64,000 bases of DNA from contig JBGSMD010000063.1 in the NCBI GenBank assembly GCA_041740355.1, positions 53,002-117,001 of the forward strand, in the 5' to 3' direction. This stretch comes from Bdellovibrionota bacterium. GTDB taxonomy: Bacteria > Bdellovibrionota_C > UBA2361 > CALJRW01. This document shows, in pieces, positions 11,542 through 62,418 of this stretch (its first letter is position 1; each line of letters begins with the position of its first letter). The notes beneath the pieces were generated by a model. It was not told where the DNA came from. It did no database searches and saw only the letters and a program-made list of their open reading frames with translations. The position numbers and the translations under genes were made by a program.

Positions 11542-11641
11542 TCTTCCACTAAATCCTTAATAATTTATAATTATTTTCTTGTAACTAACTAATCAGACAA
11601 AACACTTATCTTTACATCTCGACTAAAAGTATCTTAGAATT

Positions 11642-11698
11642 TAGTTATCGTAACTCCAAAAAGTAATTTCCGTTGGGAATTATTTTTTGTCATAACTT
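11642..11698. repeat. Family-2 hairpin repeat, compact copy
   Basis: The outer arms are AGTTAT...ATAACT. The inner hairpin AAAAAGTAATTTCC-gttg-GGAATTATTTTTT is shared with the copies at 31.0, 31.3, 50.8 and 54.0 kb. Confidence 0.6.
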
Positions 11699-15307: not shown

Positions 15308-15397
15308 GGAGAGGTGGCCGAGTGGTTGAAGGCGCAAGCCTGGAAAGTTTGTATACTAGAAATGGTATCGGGGGTTCGAATCCCCCTCTCTCCTCCA
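15308..15397 (+). tRNA. tRNA-Ser (anticodon GGA), CCA encoded
   Basis: Hand-folded: acceptor GGAGAGG/TCTCTCC (one G-U), 3-bp D stem, anticodon loop CTGGAAA, long variable arm (ATAC...GTAT), T arm GGGGG-TTCGAAT-CCCCC. Confidence 0.9.
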
Positions 15398-15640
15398 TTA
15401 ACTATTCACTACGTGAATAGTTAATGGAGCGCGCCGAAGCTCCGTAGGAGCGAAGGTGGGCTGATTGAATACAAAAATTTCATAGCCACGGCGTAGTCCG
15501 TCTTTGCGGAGCAAAGACGTAACGAAGACGGGCTGTTTGCGATCAAGTTATTTTACTCCAGCAGTGATTGAAACGAGCAAGTGATTTTTGTAGCCATAAC
15601 GCAGTTCTTCTTTGTGAAGCAAAGACGAAACCAAAACAAT
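15393..15640. repeat. Hairpin array beginning inside the 3' end of tRNA-Ser
   Basis: The first hairpin is a 17-bp stem, CTCCATTAACTATTCAC-tac-GTGAATAGTTAATGGAG. Next come GCTCC-gta-GGAGC flanked by GAA/GAA, then CGTCTTTGC-gga-GCAAAGACG with a competing AAGACGG arm. A degenerate second copy of that unit lies at ~15588-15630. Confidence 0.6.
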
Positions 15641-15672: not shown

Positions 15673-17355
15673 TTATAGGACTGGTACATCCCCAGCACTA
15701 GCAGGAGTTTCATTATCACCAATATTGTTTGTATTACCATAACCGATACTACCAAACTCACCGCTACCCCAACACCTAACACTACCGGTATCCAGTAATA
15801 CACATGTATGAATACCTCCGGCGGCTAGTTGAACCACGGTGCCACCGACATTTACATTTCCGACACTTGCTGGAGTTTCATTGTCACCAATATTATTAGT
15901 ATTGCCATAGCCAAGCTGACCATTTAAGCCTCGGCCCCAACACCTAACATTTCCCGTATCTAGTAATGCACAGGTTTTCTTAAAACCAGTAGCTATCTGA
16001 ACTACGGTGCCTCCGACATTTACATTTCCGACATTGGCTGGAGTTTCATTGTCACCAATATTATTAGTATTTCCATAACCAAGCTCCCCATCCGAACCTT
16101 CGCCCCAGCATCTTACATTTCCCGTATCTAGTAATGCACAGGTGTGATTCCCTGAAGCGGCCAATTGAACTACATTGCCACCAATATTCACAGCCTCATA
16201 GATAAGAGGTCCAATAATGTCATAAGTGCCCCCATGGCCAAGTTGGCCATAATAACCATCCCCCCAACACTTAACATTTCCTGAATTAACCAAGGCACAT
16301 GTATGATTACTTCCTGCTACTATTTGAGTTACAGTTTCATTTTCAAAATTGTAATCTTGAATAATAACAGACTCAAAGTTAGCAGGAGCTTCATCGTCTC
16401 CAACATTAGTAGTATTTCCGTTGCCCAGTTGGCCATTTCGTCCATAACCCCAACATTTAACTTGTCCAGTATTTAAAAGTGCACAGGTATGATTTGAGCC
16501 AGCAGAGATTTGAGTAACAGTCCCGCCAACATTAACATCTCCAGCATTGGCAGGTGTTTCAAAGTATCCAACAGAAGCAGTACTACCATATCCAAGTACA
16601 CCATAGTTACCACTCCCCCAACACCTAACTTTACCTGTGTCAAGTAGGGCACAGGTATGACCCCCTCCAGTAGCGATATCAACGACATTCCCGCCAACAA
16701 TTACATCCCCAACGCTTGCTGGTGTTTCATCATCTCCAATATTATAATGTACAGGAACAGTTGCATATCCAAGTTTACCAATAAACCCCTCACCCCAACA
16801 TCTAACTGCTCCAGTATCTAGTAGAACACAAGTATGACTAAATCCTGCCGATATTTTTTGAACATCTAAAGGTATATTACATAAGTTAGAACAAGCATCG
16901 TCATTAATATTATTTCCATCATCACACTGTTCTCCAGACTGCTTGACTCCATCTCCACAAATAGGCGTTGTGCATATATTAGTACAGGAGTCCTCATTGA
17001 TCGTATTCCCATCATCACACTGTTCAGCAATATCAACATCAACTACACCATTCCCACAGGTATGATTACAAGCAACCAGTCCTGAGACATGAAGCTTCTG
17101 CATTTTTTTTGATTGATTATTATATTTATTAATTCCGGTTGAGGCGAACAACTTCTTAAAATTAGAACTTAGCTTCTTATAGGTAATAAATTTCTTTTTT
17201 TGAATCTTCCCTGGCTTCCAAGAACCATTAACGTTTTTACAAACATAATTTATACCATCCTTTTCAACGTTTACCGTCTGGGCAAAAGCCGCCCCGGAGA
17301 ATAAAAATAGGCAGACTAGCAAAGATGAGAAGATAAATTGAAATGAGTTTTTCAT
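15673..17355 (-). CDS. Secreted RCC1-repeat (beta-propeller) protein with N-terminal Myxococcus-type cysteine-rich repeats
   Basis: A signal peptide is followed by CGNG..D..EQCDDGN...C..C repeats (x2-3). Then come about nine repeats of HTCALLDTG.V+CWG.G..GQLGYGNT..IGDNETPA (RCC1 signature). A start at 17355 (MKNSF...) is preferred over 17364. Confidence 0.8.
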   Translation of the reverse strand: MKNSFQFIFSSLLVCLFLFSGAAFAQTVNVEKDGINYVCKNVNGSWKPGKIQKKKFITYKKLSSNFKKLFASTGINKYNNQSKKMQKLHVSGLVACNHTCGNGVVDVDIAEQCDDGNTINEDSCTNICTTPICGDGVKQSGEQCDDGNNINDDACSNLCNIPLDVQKISAGFSHTCVLLDTGAVRCWGEGFIGKLGYATVPVHYNIGDDETPASVGDVIVGGNVVDIATGGGHTCALLDTGKVRCWGSGNYGVLGYGSTASVGYFETPANAGDVNVGGTVTQISAGSNHTCALLNTGQVKCWGYGRNGQLGNGNTTNVGDDEAPANFESVIIQDYNFENETVTQIVAGSNHTCALVNSGNVKCWGDGYYGQLGHGGTYDIIGPLIYEAVNIGGNVVQLAASGNHTCALLDTGNVRCWGEGSDGELGYGNTNNIGDNETPANVGNVNVGGTVVQIATGFKKTCALLDTGNVRCWGRGLNGQLGYGNTNNIGDNETPASVGNVNVGGTVVQLAAGGIHTCVLLDTGSVRCWGSGEFGSIGYGNTNNIGDNETPASAGDVPVL

Positions 17356-17408
17356 ATGGATCATTAAAAAAAGGATTAACTAACTTGTTAGGACTCGGAT
17401 CTTCTTGT

Positions 17409-17497
17409 TTAATCATTAAATAATACGGCGGCAGATAACTATCGACTCTTAAAGACTTAAACTTTAGAAATAATAATTAATGATTAGTTTGGATGAG
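17409..17497 (-). promoter_or_regulatory. Conserved upstream leader/promoter block of RCC1 paralog 1
   Basis: This ~89-nt block aligns by eye with 19442-19530, upstream of the paralog (TTAATC.TTAAATAATACGGC.G..AGATAACTATCG...TTAATGATTAG.TTGGATGA). Confidence 0.45.
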
Positions 17498-17730
17498 ACA
17501 ACTAAGATTTGAGATTCAAGGTAAATCTCGAAACTCTAAGTGACTTTATTCACGGTTAAAAGCTGTGTCCTGACTAAATCAGACTATTTAGTTCCTAAAA
17601 ATTGCAGTTCGAAAATGGTGCCTTATAAAATAAATTTTCAAGCTACAAAATTAATATGGGACTCAAGTATCATAAGAAGTCTAATAGATTCTAAAAACTA
17701 TTAGACTTCCAACTAATAATTTCTAGTTAC

Positions 17731-19401
17731 TTACAATACTGGCACATCGCCTGCACTAGCCGGCGTTTCGTCATCACCTATATCGTTGATATTACCATAT
17801 CCAAGATTACCCTCATCCCCATATCCCCAACATCTTACAGCACCAGTATCTAGAAGTGCACAAGTATGACTAACAATATAAGAAATTCTAGCATTTGAAG
17901 TAGTTATTTGAGTAACAGTGCCACCAACATTAATATCACCAACGCTAGCTGGAACCTCATTGTCTCCAATCGTTGTAAAATTTCCATAACCAAGTTGACC
18001 AGAACCTCCAAAACCCCAACACTTCACGGCACCAGTATCAAGTAGTGCGCAAGTGTGAGTTTTACCCGCAGATATTTGGGTTACCGTACCGCCAACATCA
18101 ACGTTATCAATACTTGCAGGTGTTTCATTGTCACCAACACTATATATATTACCGTAACCAAGTTGGCCCTCTTCGGCATATCCCCAACATTTTACTGCTC
18201 CAGTAGCTAAAAGCGCACAAGTATGATTATTGCCAGCAGATATTTGAGTTACTGTACCACCAACATTTATATCACCAACATTAGCTGGAGCCTCATTATC
18301 TCCAATAGTTTCAACATTTCCATAACCAAGTTGACCAGAACCTCCAAACCCCCAACACCTAACGGCACCATTATCAAGTAGTGCGCAAGTGTGACCACTG
18401 CCCACAGATATTTGAGTTACAGTACCGCCAACATCAACGTTACCAATACTAGCAGGTGTTTCATTGTCACCAATACTATTTGTATTACCGTAACCAAGTC
18501 GGCCATTTCCTCCATCGCCCCAACATTTTACAGCTCCAGTATCTAAAAGGGCGCAAGTATGCTTTCTACCAGCCGATATTTGAGTTACCGTACCGCCAAC
18601 ATCAACGTTACCAATACTAGCAGGTGTTTCATTGTCACCAATACTATTTGTATTACCGTAACCAAGTCGGCCATTTCCTCCATCGCCCCAACATCTTACT
18701 GCTCCAGTATCTAAGAGTGCGCATGTATGTTCTTCTCCCGCTGATACTTGAGTTATAGTACCACCTACATTCACATCTCCAACACTAGTTGGAGTTTCGT
18801 TATCTCCAATATTGATTACATTAGCATATCCAAGTTGACCAGAACCTCCATAGCCCCAACATTTAACATTACCAGTCTCCACAAGGGCACAGGTATGCGC
18901 ACCACCAGCGACTATTTCCAAGACTTTGTATAGACAAGTATTCGGACAAGTATCATCATCGTTACTATTCCCATCATCGCATTGTTCATCAGACTGGACA
19001 ATTCCATCACCACATTCTGGAAAATTACAAGAATTAGTACATAAGTCTGTGCTAACTAAATTCCCATCATCACACTGCTCACCCATGGATACGTCTAATA
19101 TTGTGTTTCCACAGGTATGACTACACGCAACTAACCCAGCTATATGCAGGTTCTTCATTTTTAGTGATTGCTTATTATATTTTTTTAAGGCAGTAGCTAC
19201 ATATAATTTCTTTAGATCTGATTGTAGTTTCTTGAAAGTTATAAATTTCTTTTTCTGGATTTTACCAGGTTTCCATGAGCCTTTAATTTGACTGCAAACA
19301 AACGTTTGTCCATCTTTAGTAACGGTAACTGTCTGTGCAAAAACTGAAGATGATAAACAAAAGAATACACAAGCGGATAATAATGAAAGCCTAATTTTCA
19401 T
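17731..19401 (-). CDS. Secreted RCC1-repeat protein with cysteine-rich repeats (paralog of 15673-17355)
   Basis: It has the same architecture and the same repeat consensus. The N-terminal 100 aa are co-linear with the paralog (…GSWKPGKIQKKKFIT.KKL…). Confidence 0.8.
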   Translation of the reverse strand: MKIRLSLLSACVFFCLSSSVFAQTVTVTKDGQTFVCSQIKGSWKPGKIQKKKFITFKKLQSDLKKLYVATALKKYNKQSLKMKNLHIAGLVACSHTCGNTILDVSMGEQCDDGNLVSTDLCTNSCNFPECGDGIVQSDEQCDDGNSNDDDTCPNTCLYKVLEIVAGGAHTCALVETGNVKCWGYGGSGQLGYANVINIGDNETPTSVGDVNVGGTITQVSAGEEHTCALLDTGAVRCWGDGGNGRLGYGNTNSIGDNETPASIGNVDVGGTVTQISAGRKHTCALLDTGAVKCWGDGGNGRLGYGNTNSIGDNETPASIGNVDVGGTVTQISVGSGHTCALLDNGAVRCWGFGGSGQLGYGNVETIGDNEAPANVGDINVGGTVTQISAGNNHTCALLATGAVKCWGYAEEGQLGYGNIYSVGDNETPASIDNVDVGGTVTQISAGKTHTCALLDTGAVKCWGFGGSGQLGYGNFTTIGDNEVPASVGDINVGGTVTQITTSNARISYIVSHTCALLDTGAVRCWGYGDEGNLGYGNINDIGDDETPASAGDVPVL

Positions 19402-27024: not shown

Positions 27025-27050
27025 GTTAAAACCTCGTCTAAAATTATAAA

Positions 27051-27077
27051 CCCTCCGCAGATGAAATTTGCGGAGGG
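27051..27077. repeat. Family-1 hairpin module only (CCCTCCGCA-N9-TGCGGAGGG)
   Basis: The same 9-bp stem and a near-identical loop (GATGAAATT) begin the long copies at 30.7 and 37.9 kb. A second hairpin, ACCTGAG-N7-CTCAGGT, follows. Confidence 0.6.
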
Positions 27078-27308
27078 TGAGTGTCACCTGAGTCTTGTTC
27101 TCAGGTTCTAGGATATTTCTATATCAAAGCTTTATGTCTTTCAAGTATATTTCTATGTTTTAGTTAAATTCTATAAAAATGTTCTAATGCACGATCTCCC
27201 TGAGAACTTAGCAATAGAAATTAGTGAGTATTTTAAGGTAGTTATGAATTCTTGTAATTTAAGCACAATATCATAAGATACAAGCTCTTAACTTAATACT
27301 CAGTTCGC

Positions 27309-29708: not shown

Positions 29709-30686
29709 ATGAAAAAATTTGTTCTGGGTATCTTTTTTACTTCCTTGTTATTCGCAACTAGCGCTTGGGCTTGCGACCCTTGCGCAATATTTAATGCCGC
29801 TAGGCTTGATGGACATGAGCCCAACAGTTGGCGAGTTTCACTAGGAGAGCAGTATACTAATTTTAAAAAAGGGAAAAGTTACCCAGAAAATTCCTTTCGC
29901 AATAAGGAGTTGGTTAAAGGATTTAGTAATACCCAGTTTGCTCTGTCCTATGATTTTAGTGAAGTTTTAGGACTACAACTAAGTATTCCCTTAATCTCTC
30001 GCTATGTTGAAGAAATCAAAGACTATCAAACTTCCAACAATTGGGATGCCGGCCTTGGTGATATTAGTCTAATAGCTTCTTACTCCCCAGTTCATATTAA
30101 AAAGTTAGACTGGACAGTGCTAACTGGTGTTTCTGCTGGAATAAAATTACCGACTGGAGACACAGGTGTATTAGAAGAAATTAGTGCTGACCCAGATGCG
30201 CAAGTAAAAGCTCAGTTTTTAAAGCACCACCCAGTTGGCTCTACCTCTGGTGGACGCGCCTTAACTTATGGATCAGGATCTTATGATTATATCATGGGAG
30301 CAAACAATTTACTTCGATATCAAAACTTTTTATTACTAAGCAATATTCAATATACGATCCGCACTGAAGGTGATTTTAATTACGAATTTGATAATGATTT
30401 AATTTGGGCCGTACTTCCAGCCTACTATCTTTTATTAGAACATGACTACACTGTGGCTAGTGGTCTAGGCCTTTCTGGCGAACATAAAGGTAAAGATCGA
30501 TTAGCTGGTAGCGAACTTGATGGTTCAGATATTTCTAATATCTACTTAGGACCTGAGTTAATCTTAAGCTTTAAAGGTAAATATTCTGCACAAATTGGAT
30601 TTGATTTTCGGGTCTCCAATAAAGATCGCGAAGCCGATATTGTGCCGGAGAATAGAGTACGAGCCAGTTTGGCTTATCGTTTTTAA
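29709..30686 (+). CDS. Outer-membrane beta-barrel protein with N-terminal CxxC (WACDPCAIF)
   Basis: It has a signal peptide (MKKFVLGIFFTSLLFATSAWA), alternating beta-strand patterns and a C-terminal ...SLAYRF (aromatic terminus). The start was trimmed from 29655 to 29709. Confidence 0.55.
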   Translation: MKKFVLGIFFTSLLFATSAWACDPCAIFNAARLDGHEPNSWRVSLGEQYTNFKKGKSYPENSFRNKELVKGFSNTQFALSYDFSEVLGLQLSIPLISRYVEEIKDYQTSNNWDAGLGDISLIASYSPVHIKKLDWTVLTGVSAGIKLPTGDTGVLEEISADPDAQVKAQFLKHHPVGSTSGGRALTYGSGSYDYIMGANNLLRYQNFLLLSNIQYTIRTEGDFNYEFDNDLIWAVLPAYYLLLEHDYTVASGLGLSGEHKGKDRLAGSELDGSDISNIYLGPELILSFKGKYSAQIGFDFRVSNKDREADIVPENRVRASLAYRF

Positions 30687-30687
30687 A

Positions 30688-30918
30688 CTCTCCACAGATG
30701 AAATTTGCGGAGGGCGAGCGTAGTCTTAGCTTGTTTATCGGACGTAGCATTTGCGAAGTCTGAAACCAAGTTACGCCGTAGAAGACAAAACTGATACTCA
30801 CCGCTCTTTGTGCATTCGGTTTAGTATTATTTTCTCCGGCAAAACCCTTTTTGCAACAGGATTTTACTCGCTCACTTTGCTTTTCATTTTTTCTCAAAAA
30901 TGAAAAGCGGTGAGTATA
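30688..30918. repeat. Family-1 structured repeat, copy A (~230 nt)
   Basis: It aligns by eye over most of its length with 37863-38116. The modules are hairpin CTCCACA.../TGCGGAG, the block GACGTAGCATTTGCGAAGTCTGAA.CCAAGTT, the long-range pair ACTCACCGCT...AGCGGTGAGT, and an A/T hairpin TTTTCATTTTT-tctc-AAAAATGAAAA. Confidence 0.7.
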
Positions 30919-31263: not shown

Positions 31264-31333
31264 GGGTTTACTATATAATCCGAGATACGCAAAAAGTAAT
31301 TCCCAATGGAAATTACTTTTTGGGCTCACTATA
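31264..31333. repeat. Family-2 repeat, partial copy
   Basis: AAAAAGTAATTCC-caat-GGAAATTACTTTTT is flanked by GGGTTTACTATA / GGGCTCACTATA. Confidence 0.6.
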
Positions 31334-32221
31334 CTAAAAAATAACTGCTGGATCACGTCGATAAACACGCTCTTGTTCTAATAAATAATTTTCATCTCCA
31401 GCTAGGTTAACAATCTGACGCATGACATCGCGATATTCTGATTTCTGATCACTGCTTAATAAAAAAAGATTTTGTCTTAGCTTAGACTGAGACTCTCTGT
31501 TGTAAGTGATTTGCTGTCTTATTTGCTCTAACTTTTCAATTCTTTCAGCTTTATCCATCGTCATCAAATCGACAATACCATCAATCAGGATTCCTGCCGC
31601 TTTAGCCGTAGATTCTTGTAATTCTCTTCTTTGAAGAAAACTACCAATCTCTTTTGAGTACTCTTCTCTTAGTTGTTTTGTGTTTGAACCAAATGCTTCG
31701 AGTGGAATGACTAAAGTATATCTTTCTGATAAATCAGAAAATGCCGTTAATAATTTATTTATTTCAAGTAAATTATTATAAATTAATTTTTTTAGTTCAC
31801 CAGCAATACTGGCATCCATTAACATTATCTCAGAAATTTCAATTAATTTTTCTGGATTAGAAGTCGCTCTTTGAATACTCTTAGCAATCTCTTCAAAGTC
31901 ATTTCTACTTAATAGATCCTTTAAACGCTGAGCCTCAGCGGGACTATCTGCAATAACTTCTAAAATTAATTTTAAGTTTTCGGGGTCCATTTTTCGTAAA
32001 CTCTCTCCGCGATTATTGGTAAGATAAGTGACAGCTTCACGTAAATTATCAAAATTTCTGTTAAGATTCTGTAAAGTTTCCTCAGTCGTCTTACGATCAA
32101 CCACAGTAAAATGATCCTTGGCATTTGTTAATTCGCGCACTAAGTTATTAAGCCCATCCTGCTGGATAATATCGCGTGGATTTAGAGTAGGGTTTCTTTC
32201 TTGTTGGATCGGATTTGGCAT
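31334..32221 (-). CDS. Hypothetical protein (295 aa), predicted helical/coiled-coil
   Basis: Long ORF rich in heptad-like charged/Leu sequence, with no recognised motif. Confidence 0.45.
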   Translation of the reverse strand: MPNPIQQERNPTLNPRDIIQQDGLNNLVRELTNAKDHFTVVDRKTTEETLQNLNRNFDNLREAVTYLTNNRGESLRKMDPENLKLILEVIADSPAEAQRLKDLLSRNDFEEIAKSIQRATSNPEKLIEISEIMLMDASIAGELKKLIYNNLLEINKLLTAFSDLSERYTLVIPLEAFGSNTKQLREEYSKEIGSFLQRRELQESTAKAAGILIDGIVDLMTMDKAERIEKLEQIRQQITYNRESQSKLRQNLFLLSSDQKSEYRDVMRQIVNLAGDENYLLEQERVYRRDPAVIF

Positions 32222-37840: not shown

Positions 37841-37862
37841 ATACTGCTTGGAATTGAATAAA

Positions 37863-38116
37863 CCCTCCGCAGATAACTTGCGGAGGGCGAGCGTAATCTT
37901 GGCTTTTTTACCAGACGTAGCATTTGCGAAGTCTGAAGCCAAGTTGCTCCGTAGAAGATAAAACCAATACTCACCGCTGATTTGCGTAGGGTTTGGTAGT
38001 ATTTTCTTCAGCAAAATCTGTCTCCCTCTTTCGCCAAAGCTTCAGAGGACAATTCGCCAGGATTTTGCTCGTTCACCTTACTTTCATTTTTTATAAAAAA
38101 TGAAAAGCGGTGAGCA
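37863..38116. repeat. Family-1 structured repeat, copy B (~254 nt)
   Basis: It has the same module order as copy A, a perfect first hairpin CCCTCCGCA-N9-TGCGGAGGG, and an internal insertion relative to copy A. Confidence 0.7.
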
Positions 38117-50532: not shown

Positions 50533-50762
50533 ACGACCACTTCCTCTTTACGACAAAACATTTCTAAAAACTCGGTAAGTTTTGAAATGTTTTTGGTTAA
50601 ATCTGGAAGAAAAAATCTGCAAGTCTAACCCTACTAAGATTCAATCTTATTAAAAGTTCTATATTGAATATGATCACTAAGCAAGATTTATTATTTTGTG
50701 TTTAGCTAAAAAAAATGTTGACAGAAAAATCAAAAGTTCAAGATTTTAAGTGAATGATTCTT

Positions 50763-50897
50763 TAGTTATGACAAAAAGTAATTTCCAAATATTTCAAAGG
50801 TAGTTTTTTGTCATAACTATATGATATTATTATCCCTCCGGGGGATAGTAAGCCCCAAAAAGTAATTCCAAACAGAAATTACTTTTTAGGCTTACTA
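50763..50897. repeat. Family-2 composite repeat, full copy (two long hairpins)
   Basis: Hairpin 1 is TAGTTATGACAAAAA...TTTTTGTCATAACTA (15 bp). Hairpin 2 is TAGTAAGCC(CC)AAAAAGTAATT...AATTACTTTTT(A)GGCTTACTA (~20 bp). It is co-linear with 54003-54144. Confidence 0.7.
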
Positions 50898-53320: not shown

Positions 53321-53803
53321 TTAAGTTATATTTTGGTAATCTAAAACCTTAAAAAGCTCCTTCATTTTTTGATATCGATAATCAAAAATGTTCTTAAGCT
53401 GATTCTTTACCAACAACTCTCTCGCTATTTGACCAAAGATGCCACAAGGCATTCCATAATGAACTAAATCTTCTACCACCAAGCCTTGATCTGTTTTTCT
53501 AAATGAATGTTGATGGTGCCAAAACTTATAAGGTCCAAAGCGCTGCTCATCTATAAAATACTCCCGATCTTTAACCTGGGTAATTTCCGTCACCCATTGC
53601 ATTGGGATTCCAAGTAAAGGATAGACTCGATACTCTATTATCTTGCCAGGATATATTCTTCCATCTTCTGCGCCAGATATAAATTTAAAGTTTAAAAACT
53701 CAGGTGTAATAATCTTCAGATTCATCGGATTACTAAAGAAGTCCCAAATAGTTTCCAGATCTTCATTTAGGATAAATCTTTCTTTGATCTGATAAATTTT
53801 CAT
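53321..53803 (-). CDS. SRPBCC-fold (START/Bet v1-like) ligand-binding protein
   Basis: At ~160 aa, with the pattern ...W.FFSNP.NL..ITP....F........G.II.Y.V.......W.TEIT...... F.DEQ..GPYK.W.H.H.F, it is typical of the COG4276-type SRPBCC family. Confidence 0.6.
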   Translation of the reverse strand: MKIYQIKERFILNEDLETIWDFFSNPMNLKIITPEFLNFKFISGAEDGRIYPGKIIEYRVYPLLGIPMQWVTEITQVKDREYFIDEQRFGPYKFWHHQHSFRKTDQGLVVEDLVHYGMPCGIFGQIARELLVKNQLKNIFDYRYQKMKELFKVLDYQNIT

Positions 53804-54002
53804 AAAATATTGCTTTGATTATAATACTAGCCACTTTACTGATGAATCTTTTCAAATAAAGATTACTTACTAAATTAAGTATCTATGACGTAAGAACTAG
53901 ATTAAATTGCACAACTTTTCTTAGATTAGGATATTCAAATTCAATCGCTGTCCAAGTAAATTTGCAAACTGCCAAAAAGTGTATCGCTGCGGATGAGTTT
54001 TA

Positions 54003-54144
54003 TAGTTATGACAAAAACTAATTTCCGAATATTTAAAAATTAGTTTTGTGATTTTTGTCATAACCGTATGATTTTATAACGCTTGCGGGGGATAGTAAGC
54101 CCCAGAAAGTAATTCCTATTGGAAATTCCTTTCTGGACTTACTA
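54003..54144. repeat. Family-2 composite repeat, full copy
   Basis: It has the same two-hairpin layout as 50763-50897, with small indels and compensating changes. Confidence 0.7.
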
Positions 54145-54407
54145 TAGTATATTTATTTTGCTCAGATTCTAAGTTTATTTTATAAGGTCTAGAGACTTAT
54201 GCGAACCCCTTGGGTCACATCAAGCACTTTATGCTTGAGATACGAGGCAACCAGATCTTATTAAGGAAAGTTTCAATGTCGCCTAGTATATTCTTGGATT
54301 TAGACTAAAGCTGGACTATTTGAGCTTAAAAATTAATGTTTGTTAAATATAATGTCGAACAATTATTAGCTTTCAAATTTAACTTAAACGACTTAATAAA
54401 TACAAAA

Positions 54408-54961
54408 ATGAAACTCCAAAACTCTAAAGCTCTAAAGCTCAACATAGATTTACCTTAGTTGAGCTTTTAGTAGTTACTGCAATTATTGGTATCCTAGCCT
54501 CAGTCAGTGTGGCCAACTATGATGAATATAAAGCTAAGGTAAATGATACTCGGGCTGAGTTAACTGGTAGAAATTTAATTACGGCGGGAGAAGTCCACTT
54601 GAATGATTTAAGAGATCTACAATCGACGAATTCCCTGACATCGTCAGTTGCCTATAGCCCAATGGAGGGTAATGAATATTTAACATCAGGAGGACATTCT
54701 CTAGACATCAGATCCCTAATCTCACCAGCCCTACTTCAAGGAAACGATCTATTCTTTAATATGATGGTCGAAATGCGCAGCGCATCTCATGCCGCTAGCA
54801 GTGCAGGATTAAGAGAAAGTATTCTAATTAATATTCTAGCTTGTGGAGGAAATAATCTTTTCCATATGAATCATACGAACTTATATAATCACAATACAAT
54901 TCACCTAGATAGCTCCCCAGGAAGTACAGTTCCGGCATTAAGATCTATGTTCTGCGGTTAG
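54408..54961 (+). pseudogene. Type IVa pilin (PilA-like) gene disrupted by a frameshift from an 8-bp tandem duplication
   Basis: The ATG at 54408 gives MKLQNSKALKLNIDLP*. In the other frame the sequence reads ...SKAQHR|FTLVELLVVTAIIGILASVSVANYDEYKAK..., continuing to a C-terminal Cys pair (ACGG...MFCG). Removing one copy of CTCTAAAG (54422-54429 / 54430-54437) restores a single ORF. Confidence 0.65.
54422..54437 (+). repeat. Perfect 8-bp tandem duplication CTCTAAAG x2 inside the pilin leader
   Basis: Read directly from the sequence. Confidence 0.9.
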
Positions 54962-55070
54962 TTTCTAAATAGCTTGTATTGTTAAGTTATTTTAAAGATC
55001 GATAATTTTACCTCTCTAACGACTTGTAAATAGGTATTAAATTTGCTAATTATCCCAGTCTACAAAGTTT

Positions 55071-55143
55071 GCCCAGATAGCTCAGTTGGTAGAGCAAAGG
55101 ACTGAAAATCCTTGTGTCGACGGTTCGATCCCGCCTCTGGGCA
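55071..55143 (+). tRNA. tRNA-Phe (anticodon GAA), no encoded CCA
   Basis: It is co-linear with canonical bacterial tRNA-Phe: acceptor GCCCAGA/TCTGGGC, D arm GCTC-AGTTGGTA-GAGC, anticodon loop CTGAAAA, and T arm GACGG-TTCGATC-CCGCC (one A-C mismatch). Confidence 0.9.
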
Positions 55144-55580
55144 CTTTTTCACAATTTTATTGTGAAAAAGTGCATAGCTATTTTCGTAGAAAATAGCTGG
55201 GCCATACATCTAAAGGATGTTGCATAATAATTTTGAGTCATAGATACAGTCTTTTTCTTAACCTAATTCTCAAAATTATTGGGCTACTTTCGCCTAGCGA
55301 AATAAAGTGCATAGTAATTTTCTGAAAGAAAATTACTGGGCAATTACCAGAATGGTGTTGCATAGCTATTTTCGAAGAAAATTACTGGGCAATTACCAGA
55401 ATGGTGTTGCATAGCTATTTTCGAAGAAAATAGCTGGGCATTATCCGAAGGATAATGTTTAGTAGTTCTTCCTAAAACTACTAAACCCGAGCACCGCGAG
55501 GGTTAATAATTCTGATCTCAGAATTATTAAGCAATCATCCGCAGGATGATGCTAAGTAGTTTAAGGAAAAGCTACTTGGC
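55141..55580. repeat. Array of ~15 back-to-back hairpins starting in the last 3 nt of tRNA-Phe
   Basis: Examples: GCACTTTTTCACAAT-ttt-ATTGTGAAAAAGTGC (15 bp), AGCTATTTTC-gta-GAAAATAGCT, AATAATTTTGAG...CTCAAAATTATT, AGTAATTTTC-tgaaa-GAAAATTACT, ATTATCC-gaa-GGATAAT, GTTTAGTAGTT...AACTACTAAAC, TTAATAATTCTGA-tc-TCAGAATTATTAA. Several are followed by (C)TGGGC(A), the same sequence as the tRNA-Phe 3' acceptor end. Confidence 0.7.
55331..55428. repeat. Perfect 49-bp tandem duplication (x2) within the hairpin array
   Basis: AATTACTGGGCAATTACCAGAATGGTGTTGCATAGCTATTTTCGAAGAA occurs at 55331-55379 and again at 55380-55428. Confidence 0.85.
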
Positions 55581-55723
55581 ACCGAGTTCTTTAAAATTCA
55601 AAAGAAAACACTGAACCCTAAGCAAACATAATCTAACCCCACTTGCTCAAAACCTACTAATAATAACGACTAGGTACTACCTCACCCCTTTTTCCTCCCC
55701 CACTCTTGCGCTATGCTACCCCC

Positions 55724-56734
55724 ATGTCCTCTAAAGAAATAATTGAAAAAATTAAAGTGCTGGCAACTCAACCAACACCCCCTCGACAAATCGCAATAAT
55801 TGCTAGCGATCGCATACTCCGAGAACGCACATTAAATAGCTTTGCGGAAGAACTAAAACTCCAAGCAGAGGGTAAATGGAAATATGATATTAAGCGAATT
55901 AAATTATCTCAAGCCAAAGACCAGGATTTAAAAACTTTTATCTTTGAATCTAATGCCCAATCTTTTTTTTCTAAGAAACAAATTTTCTTAATTGAAGAAC
56001 TAGAAAAAGTTAGCGGTCCACAAACAGATATTTTGCTAAGCTTATTTAAGCAAAGACAAACTGAAAATTATTACTTTTTTCTGGGCACCGGGTTACTCAG
56101 TACTAGTCGTTTAATGAAGCAATTTAAAGAGCAGAACTCTGTAATCACACTGCCCAATTTGAAACTGCCGGAATTTAAAAATTGGATCAAAGGAGAGTTT
56201 AATTCTAAAAATCTTTTGCCTGAGCCTAGAGTGATTGATCATCTAGCTCAAAGCTGTGAGCTTTTAACTGACATCGCCCTAGCTAAGATTGAGCAACTAG
56301 AATTATTTGCAGATACTCAGAAAATCACACTTAGTATGGCAGAAGATCTTTTTCCAAGTGAGCTAGCTTTAAAGAAGTTTGCTTGGTTAGATGCCATCTC
56401 CTCTGGCAACAAGCTATTAGCTCAAAAGCTTGTTAGTCAAGCACTGTCTGAAGGTAAAGAAGCACTAGGGCTGACTGCACTTATTCAAGGTAATTACTTA
56501 AATTATTATTTAATTATCTCCCTTCGAAATCAGGGTTACTCTCAACAACAAATTAAAGCTTCCTTGAAAATAGAACCCTGGCTTTTCGATTTACAATATT
56601 CCACAGCTTCCCAAAAAGACTTAAAAAGATTAATTAAAGACTTAAAAGTACTCGTACTCGCTGATAGTAAATTAAAAAATAAGTCTCTAGGTAGCGAAGC
56701 TGTTTTGCACGAACTAATTAATTCTTTATCTTAA
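55724..56734 (+). CDS. holA: DNA polymerase III subunit delta (HolA)-like
   Basis: It is ~336 aa. The N-terminal pattern is …SFFSKKQIFLIEELEK…. The C-terminal domain pattern LDAISSGNKLLAQKLVSQALSEGKEALGLTALIQ resembles HolA domain III. The ATG at 55724 is preferred over the TTG at 55706. Confidence 0.5.
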   Translation: MSSKEIIEKIKVLATQPTPPRQIAIIASDRILRERTLNSFAEELKLQAEGKWKYDIKRIKLSQAKDQDLKTFIFESNAQSFFSKKQIFLIEELEKVSGPQTDILLSLFKQRQTENYYFFLGTGLLSTSRLMKQFKEQNSVITLPNLKLPEFKNWIKGEFNSKNLLPEPRVIDHLAQSCELLTDIALAKIEQLELFADTQKITLSMAEDLFPSELALKKFAWLDAISSGNKLLAQKLVSQALSEGKEALGLTALIQGNYLNYYLIISLRNQGYSQQQIKASLKIEPWLFDLQYSTASQKDLKRLIKDLKVLVLADSKLKNKSLGSEAVLHELINSLS

Positions 56735-62346: not shown

Positions 62347-62418
62347 TTCTCCCCTTTTGGGTCACACGGCATCGAACCATTTAAATACCTCGATGTATTG
62401 TGACCCAAAAGGGGAGAA
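62347..62418. repeat. 20-bp perfect hairpin immediately after tRNA-Trp, with nested 6-bp hairpin
   Basis: TTCTCCCCTTTTGGGTCACA-N32-TGTGACCCAAAAGGGGAGAA. The loop contains CATCGA...TCGATG. Confidence 0.8.

Follow-up and report, generated by a model that had tools for sequence, protein, structure and literature searches.

Why should a bacterial tRNA gene be followed by more than a dozen back-to-back hairpins, and does such an arrangement represent a new kind of genetic system or the overgrowth of a familiar one? We addressed this question in a stretch of 64,000 nucleotides from a Bdellovibrionota bacterium (GenBank assembly GCA_041740355.1, contig JBGSMD010000063.1, positions 53,002 to 117,001; hereafter the window, to which all positions refer unless stated otherwise), in which a dense hairpin array begins within the last bases of a tRNA-Phe gene and extends toward a holA-like gene. 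Comparison with the only close relative that we found, an unclassified metagenome-assembled genome (MAG), shows that the array arose when an ancestral module of two hairpins expanded in tandem, specifically in this lineage, an origin that could not be seen in an earlier reading made from the letters of the window without database searches (the sequence-only reading). The locus is a real oddity, but it is most likely an overgrown tRNA trailer or terminator and not a new kind of system. The clade is sampled here by two genomes, and for the source genome the analysis covers 64 kb; the closest named relatives of its NuoB protein come from Bdellovibrionota, Bdellovibrionales and Oligoflexia MAGs.

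Both ARAGORN and Rfam call the tRNA-Phe(GAA) gene, the latter at 67.5 bits; the gene does not encode the CCA end and terminates in TCTGGGC followed by the discriminator A. The sequence-only reading had reported about 15 contiguous hairpins fused to its 3' end, and this description stands: we count sixteen hairpins, which tile all of the 440 bases from 55141 (G71-C72-A73 of the tRNA) to 55580, with overlaps of 0-3 bases between neighbors, stems of 5-15 bp and energies between -3.3 and -18.3 kcal/mol. The predicted fold of positions 55144-55600 has an energy of -168.7 kcal/mol, as compared to -97.6 +/- 5.1 in dinucleotide shuffles (z = -13.95; z = -11.6 if tRNA-Phe is included), and hairpin density across the 64 kb peaks here, with 17 seed matches in the 500-bp bin of the array and at most 8 in every other bin. 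No open reading frame (ORF) longer than 41 aa is wholly contained in the array, and a search against Rfam retrieved no family but tRNA above the curated thresholds, the matches at E <= 10 being hairpin noise (miRNA models, and CsrB at E = 10).

The hairpins follow each other in the order H1, A1, B', A2L, H1', A3, B, A4, B, A5, C1, D1, E, F, C2, D2 (Table 1), which amounts to about eight diverged copies of one module composed of a small hairpin (H1, B or C type) and a large hairpin (A or D type). The recurring unit noticed earlier, GCATAG(C/T)(T/A)ATTTTC-loop-GAAAAT(A/T)(G/A)CTGGGC, is indeed present in four copies, plus one with a 31-nt insert in its loop; all A units have the same orientation (GCATAG...CTGGGC). 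A covariance model built from the A and D hairpins (R1) recovered the insert-bearing unit A2L although it was outside the training set (E = 5e-5). Three of the units (with ends starting at 55336, 55385 and 55434) close with CTGGGCA, exactly the last 7 nt of tRNA-Phe, as the sequence-only reading had observed, but since the copies are paralogues of one ancestral unit, their match to the tRNA end represents one inherited event and not several. Variant ends are found in A1 (CTGGGCC), A2L (TTGGGCT) and D2 (CTTGGCA).

Pairing has been kept through this divergence. In the A/D stems, 5 of the 14 pairs are altered on both sides yet still paired, and 90.6% of the A/D alignment cells are paired, as compared to 28-54% in slid controls. 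Every A copy retains a mismatched A.G at stem position 3 and a U.G pair at position 4, preserving ...CTGGGC. The + strand folds better than its complement, with 10 G.U pairs and a summed energy of -148.7 kcal/mol versus 3 G.U pairs and -134.5 kcal/mol for the - strand; this difference is found in the non-perfect hairpins, through their G.U pairs.

Table 1. Positions of the array hairpins and of associated features in the window.
Feature	Position	Strand	Description and evidence
Putative tRNA-Phe promoter	55024-55056	+	Conserved block TTGTAA ... AAATTTGCTA..TATCC, kept between window and MAG
tRNA-Phe(GAA)	55071-55143	+	ARAGORN, Rfam; 1 nt different from MAG copy
H1	55141-55173	+	Perfect 15-bp hairpin from the last 3 nt of the tRNA (GCA); -18.3 kcal/mol
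A1	55172-55203	+	Large hairpin GCATAGCTATTTTC-GTA-GAAAATAGCTGGGC; orthologue of MAG unit A, 100% identical; covariance model 49.9 bits
B'	55203-55223	+	Small hairpin with bulged T (B/C family); fold
A2L	55221-55285	+	A-type hairpin, 31-nt loop insert, end TTGGGCT; fold, covariance model
H1'	55285-55310	+	Decayed copy of MAG-type first hairpin (CGCCTAGCG apex), 5'-arm deletion; MAG comparison
A3	55309-55342	+	A-type hairpin, two compensated stem pairs, end CTGGGCA; fold, covariance model
B	55341-55360	+	Small hairpin CAATTACC-AGAA-TGGTGTTG, bulged T, one G.U pair; fold
A4	55360-55391	+	Chimeric A hairpin: A1/A5-type 5' arm, A3-type 3' arm, two internal mismatches; -5.1 kcal/mol
B (second copy)	55390-55409	+	Identical to the first; repeat comparison, fold
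A5	55409-55440	+	Same as A1 except for loop, end CTGGGCA; covariance model 50.9 bits
C1 + D1	55439-55486	+	Older diverged small + large module, 72% identical to C2 + D2; D1 39.1 bits
E and F	55486-55530	+	Weak, GC-richer hairpin (E) and perfect 12-bp AT hairpin (F); fold
C2 + D2	55531-55581	+	Older diverged module; D2 A-like (GCTAAG...CTTGGCA), two G.U pairs; fold, covariance model
Period-49 stretch	55326-55431	+	Exact identity at period 49, 2.16 copies; end points within direct repeats (AAGAAAAT...CTGGGCA) in the 3' arms of neighboring A units
C-rich, G-poor tract	55581-55723	+	Unstructured; C 34%, G 8%; last ~50 nt conserved
holA-like gene	55724-56734	+	DNA polymerase III delta subunit, C-terminal domain; conserved downstream neighbor of tRNA-Phe
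Hairpin abutting tRNA-Ser	15393-15429		In window
Hairpin abutting tRNA-Phe	55141-55173		In window
Hairpin abutting tRNA-Trp	62348-62418		In window
Copies of ~140-nt dispersed repeat	50754-50897, 53993-54144, 31290-31338, 11640-11689		One copy 1 kb upstream of tRNA-Phe

The origin of the array becomes apparent from comparison with relatives. When the degenerate pattern of unit A was searched in one genome for each of 185,579 species, it matched a single locus, which belongs to the MAG mentioned above (JANNBC010000031, GCA_031385045.1; our L037). There, tRNA-Phe is followed by a 15-bp hairpin (H1') that starts at GCA, by unit A, by a small hairpin, by about 170 nt of unstructured sequence, and then by holA, so that the MAG holds one module where the window holds about eight. 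The holA proteins of the two genomes are 69% identical and their coding DNA about 74%; a 37-nt block, made up of the H1 base (CTTTT...AAAAGTGC) and the complete hairpin A, is by contrast 100% identical, while its flanks cannot be aligned. At a per-site identity of 74%, 37 matches in 37 positions have a probability of about 1e-5. H1 itself keeps its base but has had its apex replaced; within the array, positions 55288-55342 match the H1' and A of the MAG at 84%. The single module of the MAG, and the decayed copy of a MAG-type H1' that precedes A3 in the window, indicate that the common ancestor had the order tRNA-H1-A.

More distant relatives, recruited through their SLT_2 protein, keep the gene order DsbA, RsmE, a variable gene, holA, SLT_2, response regulator, tmk, holB and TatD. 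What lies between tRNA-Phe and holA differs among them. One (L032) has a tRNA-Phe with an encoded CCA and a 140-nt spacer made of two contiguous hairpins, unrelated to those of the array (z = -11.6); in another (L034) the spacer is almost absent; a third (L036) has a tRNA-Phe that carries no hairpin and does not adjoin holA, and two (L029 and L030) have no tRNA at this locus.

The most recent step in the growth of the array can be read directly. The sequence-only reading had placed a perfect 49-bp tandem duplication at 55331-55428; the duplication is exact (55326-55374 equals 55375-55423), and that interval lies inside the longer period-49 stretch of Table 1, for which the Tandem Repeats Finder program (TRF) gives 2.7 copies across 55308-55440. 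The 49-bp unit is flanked by AAGAAAAT(T/A)(A/G)CTGGGCA at 55326, 55375 and 55424. Both marks of slipped-strand duplication are therefore present, namely head-to-tail copies whose number differs between relatives and end points that fall in pre-existing direct repeats, and the latest duplication bears the signature of slippage between adjacent units. Its direct product is A4, whose energy is -5.1 kcal/mol against about -12.9 kcal/mol; the chimeric and mismatched structure of this hairpin shows that the newest step was a raw mutational event, a slippage or unequal crossover between direct repeats that has been left unpolished. We conclude with high confidence that the array is the local duplication product of an ancestral H1+A module. 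An independent short-read assembly, the 2.7-kb Logan contig L001 (SRR28170465), breaks inside the array at unit A5 (window 55402), which is what one would expect of a repeat, and gives no check on the number of 49-bp copies.

The units appear to be confined to this locus. Pattern search, sensitive BLAST and the covariance model all failed to find them in the other 63.5 kb of the window, and R1, when run on 268 kb comprising the window and the relatives, recovered only its training members, A2L, F and the MAG unit, together with weak matches to generic AT hairpins. Viral contigs contain neither the unit nor this tRNA-Phe, and the exact tRNA-Phe of this lineage has no match in JGI metagenomes. 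Its last 20 nt occur at 26 metagenomic loci of other lineages, most of which encode CC(A) and some of which have ordinary terminators; none of the 26 shows a hairpin array or a nearby TGGGC repeat. The sequence-only reading had allowed that the units might be generic REP-like filler scattered at random, which does not agree with the absence of any further unit from the 63.5 kb, the fetched loci and the species-representative genomes. The census was able to detect repeats of this sort, since two dispersed families were found in the window and the array units are not among them.

One of these families is composite, about 140 nt long, and carries two hairpins (GTTATGACAAAAA...TTTTTGTCATAAC and GCCCCAAAAAGTAATTCC...GGAAATTACTTTTTGGGC), its copies being 79-88% identical; the other is intergenic (30684-30914, 37859-38114 and 27044-27081; also 15430-15640), 84-89% identical, and has CCCTCCGCA...TGCGGAGGG hairpins. 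A kinship of A to the dispersed 'AAAAAGTAATTCC' hairpin family was considered and is treated as chance, being a stem match of 7-8 nt to the derived A3 only (E = 0.023 to 0.43). The AT-rich sequence and one GCGATCGC had raised the possibility of cyanobacterial small dispersed repeats, which we rejected: HIP1 occurs just twice in 64 kb, and the kin of NuoB belong to Bdellovibrionota, Bdellovibrionales or Oligoflexia. Three further candidates for the array itself were discarded as well. A sponge of the CsrB/RsmZ type is not indicated by its GGA motifs (4, as compared to 5.3 +/- 2.0 in shuffles) or by Rfam, where CsrB reaches E = 10; no T-box was matched at E <= 10, and the downstream gene is holA; and the GTTRRRY / RYYYAAC cores of integron attC or Xer-type sites are absent from the units.

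A hairpin directly behind a tRNA is not peculiar to tRNA-Phe. All three tRNAs of the window are followed by a hairpin with a stem of 15-20 bp that begins within 4 nt of the 3' end, and as the window contains 13 perfect hairpins with stems of at least 12 bp, the chance of three at tRNA ends is about 1e-8. In the MAG, tRNA-Trp has a 17-bp hairpin that starts in the encoded CCA (L037 7208-7245) and is unlike the Trp hairpin of the window in sequence. Overall, for 5/5 tRNAs of the window (Ser, Phe, Trp) and the MAG (Phe, Trp), the 3' end is directly followed by a hairpin of 15-20 bp that is perfect or nearly so. None of these hairpins is followed by a T run in either genome, and the trailers of tRNA-Ser and tRNA-Trp do not repeat the 3' ends of their own tRNAs. 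Motifs of the form GAAG(A/G)(C/T)GGGCTG, related to the second dispersed family, occur after tRNA-Ser, and similar ones after the tRNA-Phe of another lineage (L018).

The array lies where a canonical Rho-independent terminator would be expected, starting at the last bases of tRNA-Phe, but it does not have the G+C-rich stem and T run of such a terminator: the sole + strand match to the consensus is a composite at 55433-55463 with a weak tail, and neither H1 nor any A unit has a T run behind it. Canonical hairpin-plus-T terminators are not enriched in positions 1-40000 of the window either (14 vs 13.0 and 18 vs 13.6 in shuffles). This lineage may use other ways of ending transcription.

The sequence beyond the array offers one candidate. 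Between the hairpins and holA lies an unstructured, C-rich and G-poor tract, and the corresponding tract of the MAG (L037 368-535) is likewise unstructured (C 31%, G 10%); positions 55681-55729 are 82% identical between the two. Such a composition is that expected of Rho-loading (rut) sites, and we regard 55581-55723 as a candidate Rho-loading region that also contains a putative holA promoter. holA has no Shine-Dalgarno sequence, and in both genomes a TATGCT box stands 6 nt before its ATG (55706-55726; L037 about 515-538); in the distant relative L029 a TATAAT stands 7 nt before the holA ATG (about 2968-2988). A -10-like box so close to the start codon, combined with the lack of a Shine-Dalgarno sequence, suggests a leaderless holA mRNA that would be made from its own promoter.

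On the other side of the tRNA, the block at 55024-55056 is alike in window and MAG while the neighboring non-coding DNA is not conserved, and it is the putative promoter of tRNA-Phe; the assignment of the hexamers is tentative, and a scan with consensus promoters made no call there. In the T arm of the tRNA (55116-55135), the T stem GACGG/CCGCC contains an A.C mismatch that is common to the window and the MAG, whereas about 20 other tRNA-Phe genes with the same acceptor end have GGTGG. Further upstream, the interval from rsmE to tRNA-Phe (53321-54961) is a variable slot that holds two ORFs without a family match and 700 nt of non-coding DNA, and that in relatives holds other genes (RDD-domain, GH3, or a 492-aa unknown). 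Elsewhere in the window, two adjacent paralogous genes on the - strand (15673-19401; 563 and 556 aa) have many internal repeats that are 70-80% identical, and one of the two genes matches the cysteine-rich acidic 'myxo_disulf_rpt' repeat. GC skew was dropped as a guide to the direction of replication as it contradicts the gene-strand bias, and because of this conflict we built no argument on fork collisions.

We propose that the tRNA-Phe transcript has a structured 3' trailer, which expanded in tandem at this one locus to give the array, an explanation to which we give about half of our credence. In the ancestral state, tRNA-Phe was followed by the long hairpin H1, starting at the last bases of the tRNA, and then by A. 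Because the CTGGGCA of A repeats the 3' end of the tRNA, each block of a small hairpin and an A is bounded by direct repeats, and slippage or unequal crossing-over between those repeats, and later between the 3' arms of neighboring A units, duplicated the block about eight times, the exact 49-bp duplication being the latest step. We infer that the array is transcribed on the + strand. In that RNA, where H1 and A most likely act, they would be a stop or pause that needs no U tract and a block to exonucleases, defining the end of the tRNA precursor, from which RNase Z would free the CCA-less tRNA-Phe; the trailer would also shield the holA promoter from read-through off the strong tRNA promoter, and Rho would complete termination in the C-rich tract. 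The additional modules are probably redundant and nearly neutral. Our confidence in an RNA-level trailer or insulator role of H1 and A is moderate, and for an involvement of Rho it is low.

What favors the trailer explanation is the gapless tiling and strong fold, the modular build with an exact duplication that ends in the 3' arms of A, the 37-nt identity with the MAG, the hairpins that abut other tRNAs, the spacer hairpins of L032, the maintenance of the stems, the + strand bias, the C-rich tract found in both genomes, the restriction of the units to this locus, and the precedent of hairpins behind E. coli tRNAs. A termination or processing buffer was also among the four explanations that the sequence-only reading had offered, and it is the best supported of them: the tRNA-abutting hairpins, the retention of H1-A in the MAG and the spacer hairpins of L032 agree with it, while the form of a canonical terminator is not there. 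Several observations weigh against our proposal. The hairpins are without the G+C-rich stem and T run of terminators, and such terminators are not enriched in the window. The nearly missing spacer of L034 implies that a hairpin barrier is not essential. Compensatory changes in paralogous palindromes could come from template-switch correction of quasi-palindromes without selection, and the + strand advantage depends on few independent G.U pairs. Finally, a plain trailer role leaves unexplained why the A.G and U.G pairs that preserve ...CTGGGC are retained in all A copies.

This last point directs attention to the resemblance between A and the tRNA. An end-to-end alignment of A with tRNA-Phe reads GC-[CCAG deleted]-ATAGCT...TT.GTAGA...[about 37 nt deleted]-CTGGGCA and scores 12, whereas shuffled versions of A, or random hairpins built alike, score 1.5-1.9 +/- 2.3 (p <= 0.0005); the scheme allows long deletions in the tRNA and was devised after the pattern had been seen, so that these statistics are post hoc. 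A does not show such a signal against tRNA-Ser and only a marginal one (p about 0.05) against tRNA-Trp, which shares the D arm, and the likeness to tRNA-Phe is confined to the A-type units and, weakly, D2. With z = 4.3, A stands above all 48 natural hairpin strands in the window, which reach 3.5. Plain local alignment brings out no significant match between any of the three trailers and its own tRNA, and the Rfam tRNA model finds no match in the array even at E <= 10. Compared with the acceptor stem, the 3' strand of A and the discriminator are identical over 7 nt and the 5' strand in 4/6 positions, pairs 3 and 4 being A.G and U.G; the 14-bp stem and 3-5-nt loop do not have the geometry of a minihelix (12 bp and a 7-nt T loop). 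A may have begun as an internally collapsed partial duplicate of tRNA-Phe, a proposal in which our confidence is low and which would also account for the common 3' heptamer.

If the resemblance were functional, A would be a bacterial 't-element' that imitates the acceptor helix and discriminator of tRNA-Phe, and RNase Z (and/or RNase P or the CCA-adding enzyme) would act at each ...CUGGGCA, yielding hairpin RNAs or titrating the enzyme. The last 7 nt of A equal those of the tRNA, a hairpin comes after each A as it does after the tRNA, CTGGGC has been kept in all A copies in spite of the mismatch and U.G pair, A is 100% conserved in the MAG, its end-to-end score and its rank among the hairpin strands are as given above, and the lack of an encoded CCA leads one to expect an endonucleolytic 3' pathway. 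Nevertheless we find such mimicry unlikely, since the loop has 3 nt where an acceptor/T-arm minihelix has 7, the 5' strand is GCATAG and not GCCCAG, the Rfam tRNA model and plain local alignment are silent, the scoring was post hoc with natural hairpins coming as high as z = 3.5, the junction copies stem from one ancestral junction and provide no independent support, and the trailers of tRNA-Ser and tRNA-Trp carry no copy of their own tRNA ends. The sequence-only reading had likewise suggested tRNA 3'-end mimics or decoys; A does resemble tRNA-Phe from one end to the other, but it lacks the geometry of a minihelix and is not recognized by the tRNA model. The fuller version, in which one tRNA promoter would give the tRNA plus small hairpin RNAs, or mimics that buffer a tRNA-end enzyme, with the array evolving by duplication of processing units, is a shade less likely again. 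Somewhat easier to credit, and still improbable, is that the whole structure is a mutational by-product, palindromes piling up beside the tRNA (for example through fork stalling and template switching) with even H1 and A being neutral. The defective A4 left by the newest duplication, the decay of H1', the difference of one versus about eight modules between two relatives, the almost absent spacer of L034 and the unrelated hairpins after tRNA-Trp in the two genomes would all be expected under neutrality; a perfect 37-nt block amid unalignable non-coding DNA, and hairpins placed exactly at the 3' end of 5/5 tRNAs and found again in the L032 spacer, would not.

The remaining alternatives invoke DNA elements. 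Mobile and selfish hairpin repeats of a REP/REPIN or MITE type, which would enter at the 3' ends of tRNAs (as the sequence-only reading had raised) or at CTGGGCA and duplicate the target each time, would account for the CTGGGCA-like repeats that bound the modules, in a genome that carries at least two dispersed hairpin-bearing families, and the stem of A3 (AGTAATT/AATTACT) is common to one of these, with a weak covariance-model match at 31294 (E = 0.023). We consider them very unlikely: the units exist at this locus only, being absent from the rest of the window, from all but one locus among the genomes of 185,579 species and from viral contigs, the other trailers carry unrelated hairpins, six other CTGGGCA sites of the window, not counting those of the array and of the two ends of the tRNA itself, are without insertion, the blocks between the repeats differ in sequence, and the exact duplication bears the mark of slippage between adjacent units. 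Cruciforms, or palindromic sites for the binding of proteins, upstream of holA (an operator, a partition or a nucleoid element) have a similarly small chance, as at least six different palindrome sequences share no common half-site, G.U pairs give the non-perfect units a better fold as + strand RNA, and the MAG keeps only two; in their favor, many units are perfect palindromes and thus the same on both strands. Least credible are scars of genetic elements that would have integrated and excised in series with tRNA-Phe as their attachment site, one copy of its 3' end remaining from each event, a further suggestion of the sequence-only reading. The 3' ends of tRNAs are classic integration sites and a piece of one does recur, but only 7 nt of it, against roughly 15-60 nt typical of att repeats, with AAAATAG upstream of each repeat where the tRNA has CCCGCCT; the ORFs on either side belong to housekeeping genes or match no family, with no integrase or foreign gene among them, viral contigs hold neither the unit nor this tRNA, and all relatives show undisturbed synteny from DsbA and RsmE through holA, SLT_2, tmk and holB. 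These results largely refute integration scars as an explanation.

If the array is an expanded trailer, it provides a natural example of how a tRNA trailer may balloon by slippage once a hairpin in it repeats the tRNA end. It would also mean that, in an uncultured lineage akin to Bdellovibrionota, tRNA genes end in long hairpins that have no U tract, which matters for terminator prediction and annotation. Should A be cut or CCA-tagged like a tRNA, tRNA-like punctuation signals would extend to free-living bacteria; if neither holds, the locus is a local curiosity of no wider consequence.

Among known systems, the trailers of tRNA genes are the obvious comparison. In E. coli, terminator hairpins lie a few nt after the CCA of tRNA transcripts and have to be removed by PNPase, RNase P or RNase E (PMC2811032); such hairpins are also treated in PMC5291269 and PMC2241853. 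Like the terminators of leuX, proK/L/M and the metT and leuU operons, the array places a stable hairpin a few nt from the end of the tRNA, where it would insulate the downstream gene. Unlike them, it has no G+C-rich stem with a U run, its tRNA has no encoded CCA, and it consists of sixteen touching hairpins produced by duplication.

For the mimic reading, the functional analogy lies in the t-elements of plant mitochondria and the MALAT1 mascRNA; known t-elements adopt tRNA-like or acceptor/T-arm shapes, and their cleavage by RNase P and RNase Z has been shown. To our knowledge, the tRNA fragments described so far in prokaryotes derive from integrating elements or CRISPR activity. A lies beside a tRNA, or derives from one, and bears acceptor-like ends, as t-elements and tRNA fragments do, but in form it is a simple 14-bp hairpin, which goes unrecognized by the tRNA model, and the array does not come from an integrating element or from CRISPR activity. 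That partial tRNA genes occur in prokaryotes has been documented (PMC9897764).

The REP sequences of proteobacteria offer a different parallel: they are present in tens to hundreds of dispersed copies, have a GTAG head, alternate in orientation within BIMEs and are linked to RAYT (IS200/IS605-like) transposases. Like REP/BIME clusters and REPINs, the array is a cluster of imperfect palindromes in intergenic DNA. Its units differ in being restricted to a single locus and one orientation and in beginning with GCATAG or CA.., with no GTAG head, and no RAYT transposase was found among the ORFs scanned in the window. REP/BIME elements are described as imperfect palindromes of 20-35 nt clustered in intergenic DNA and thought to affect the ends and stability of transcripts (PMC3116915).

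With minisatellite or variable-number tandem repeat (VNTR) loci the array has in common its head-to-tail arrangement, a copy number of one versus about eight between relatives, and a newest copy that is exact and flanked by direct repeats. It departs from them in that its unit consists of two hairpins whose pairing has been kept through divergence, and in being anchored on the last bases of a tRNA. The locus therefore combines two familiar things, a tRNA-abutting terminator and a tandem repeat made by slippage, in a new form.

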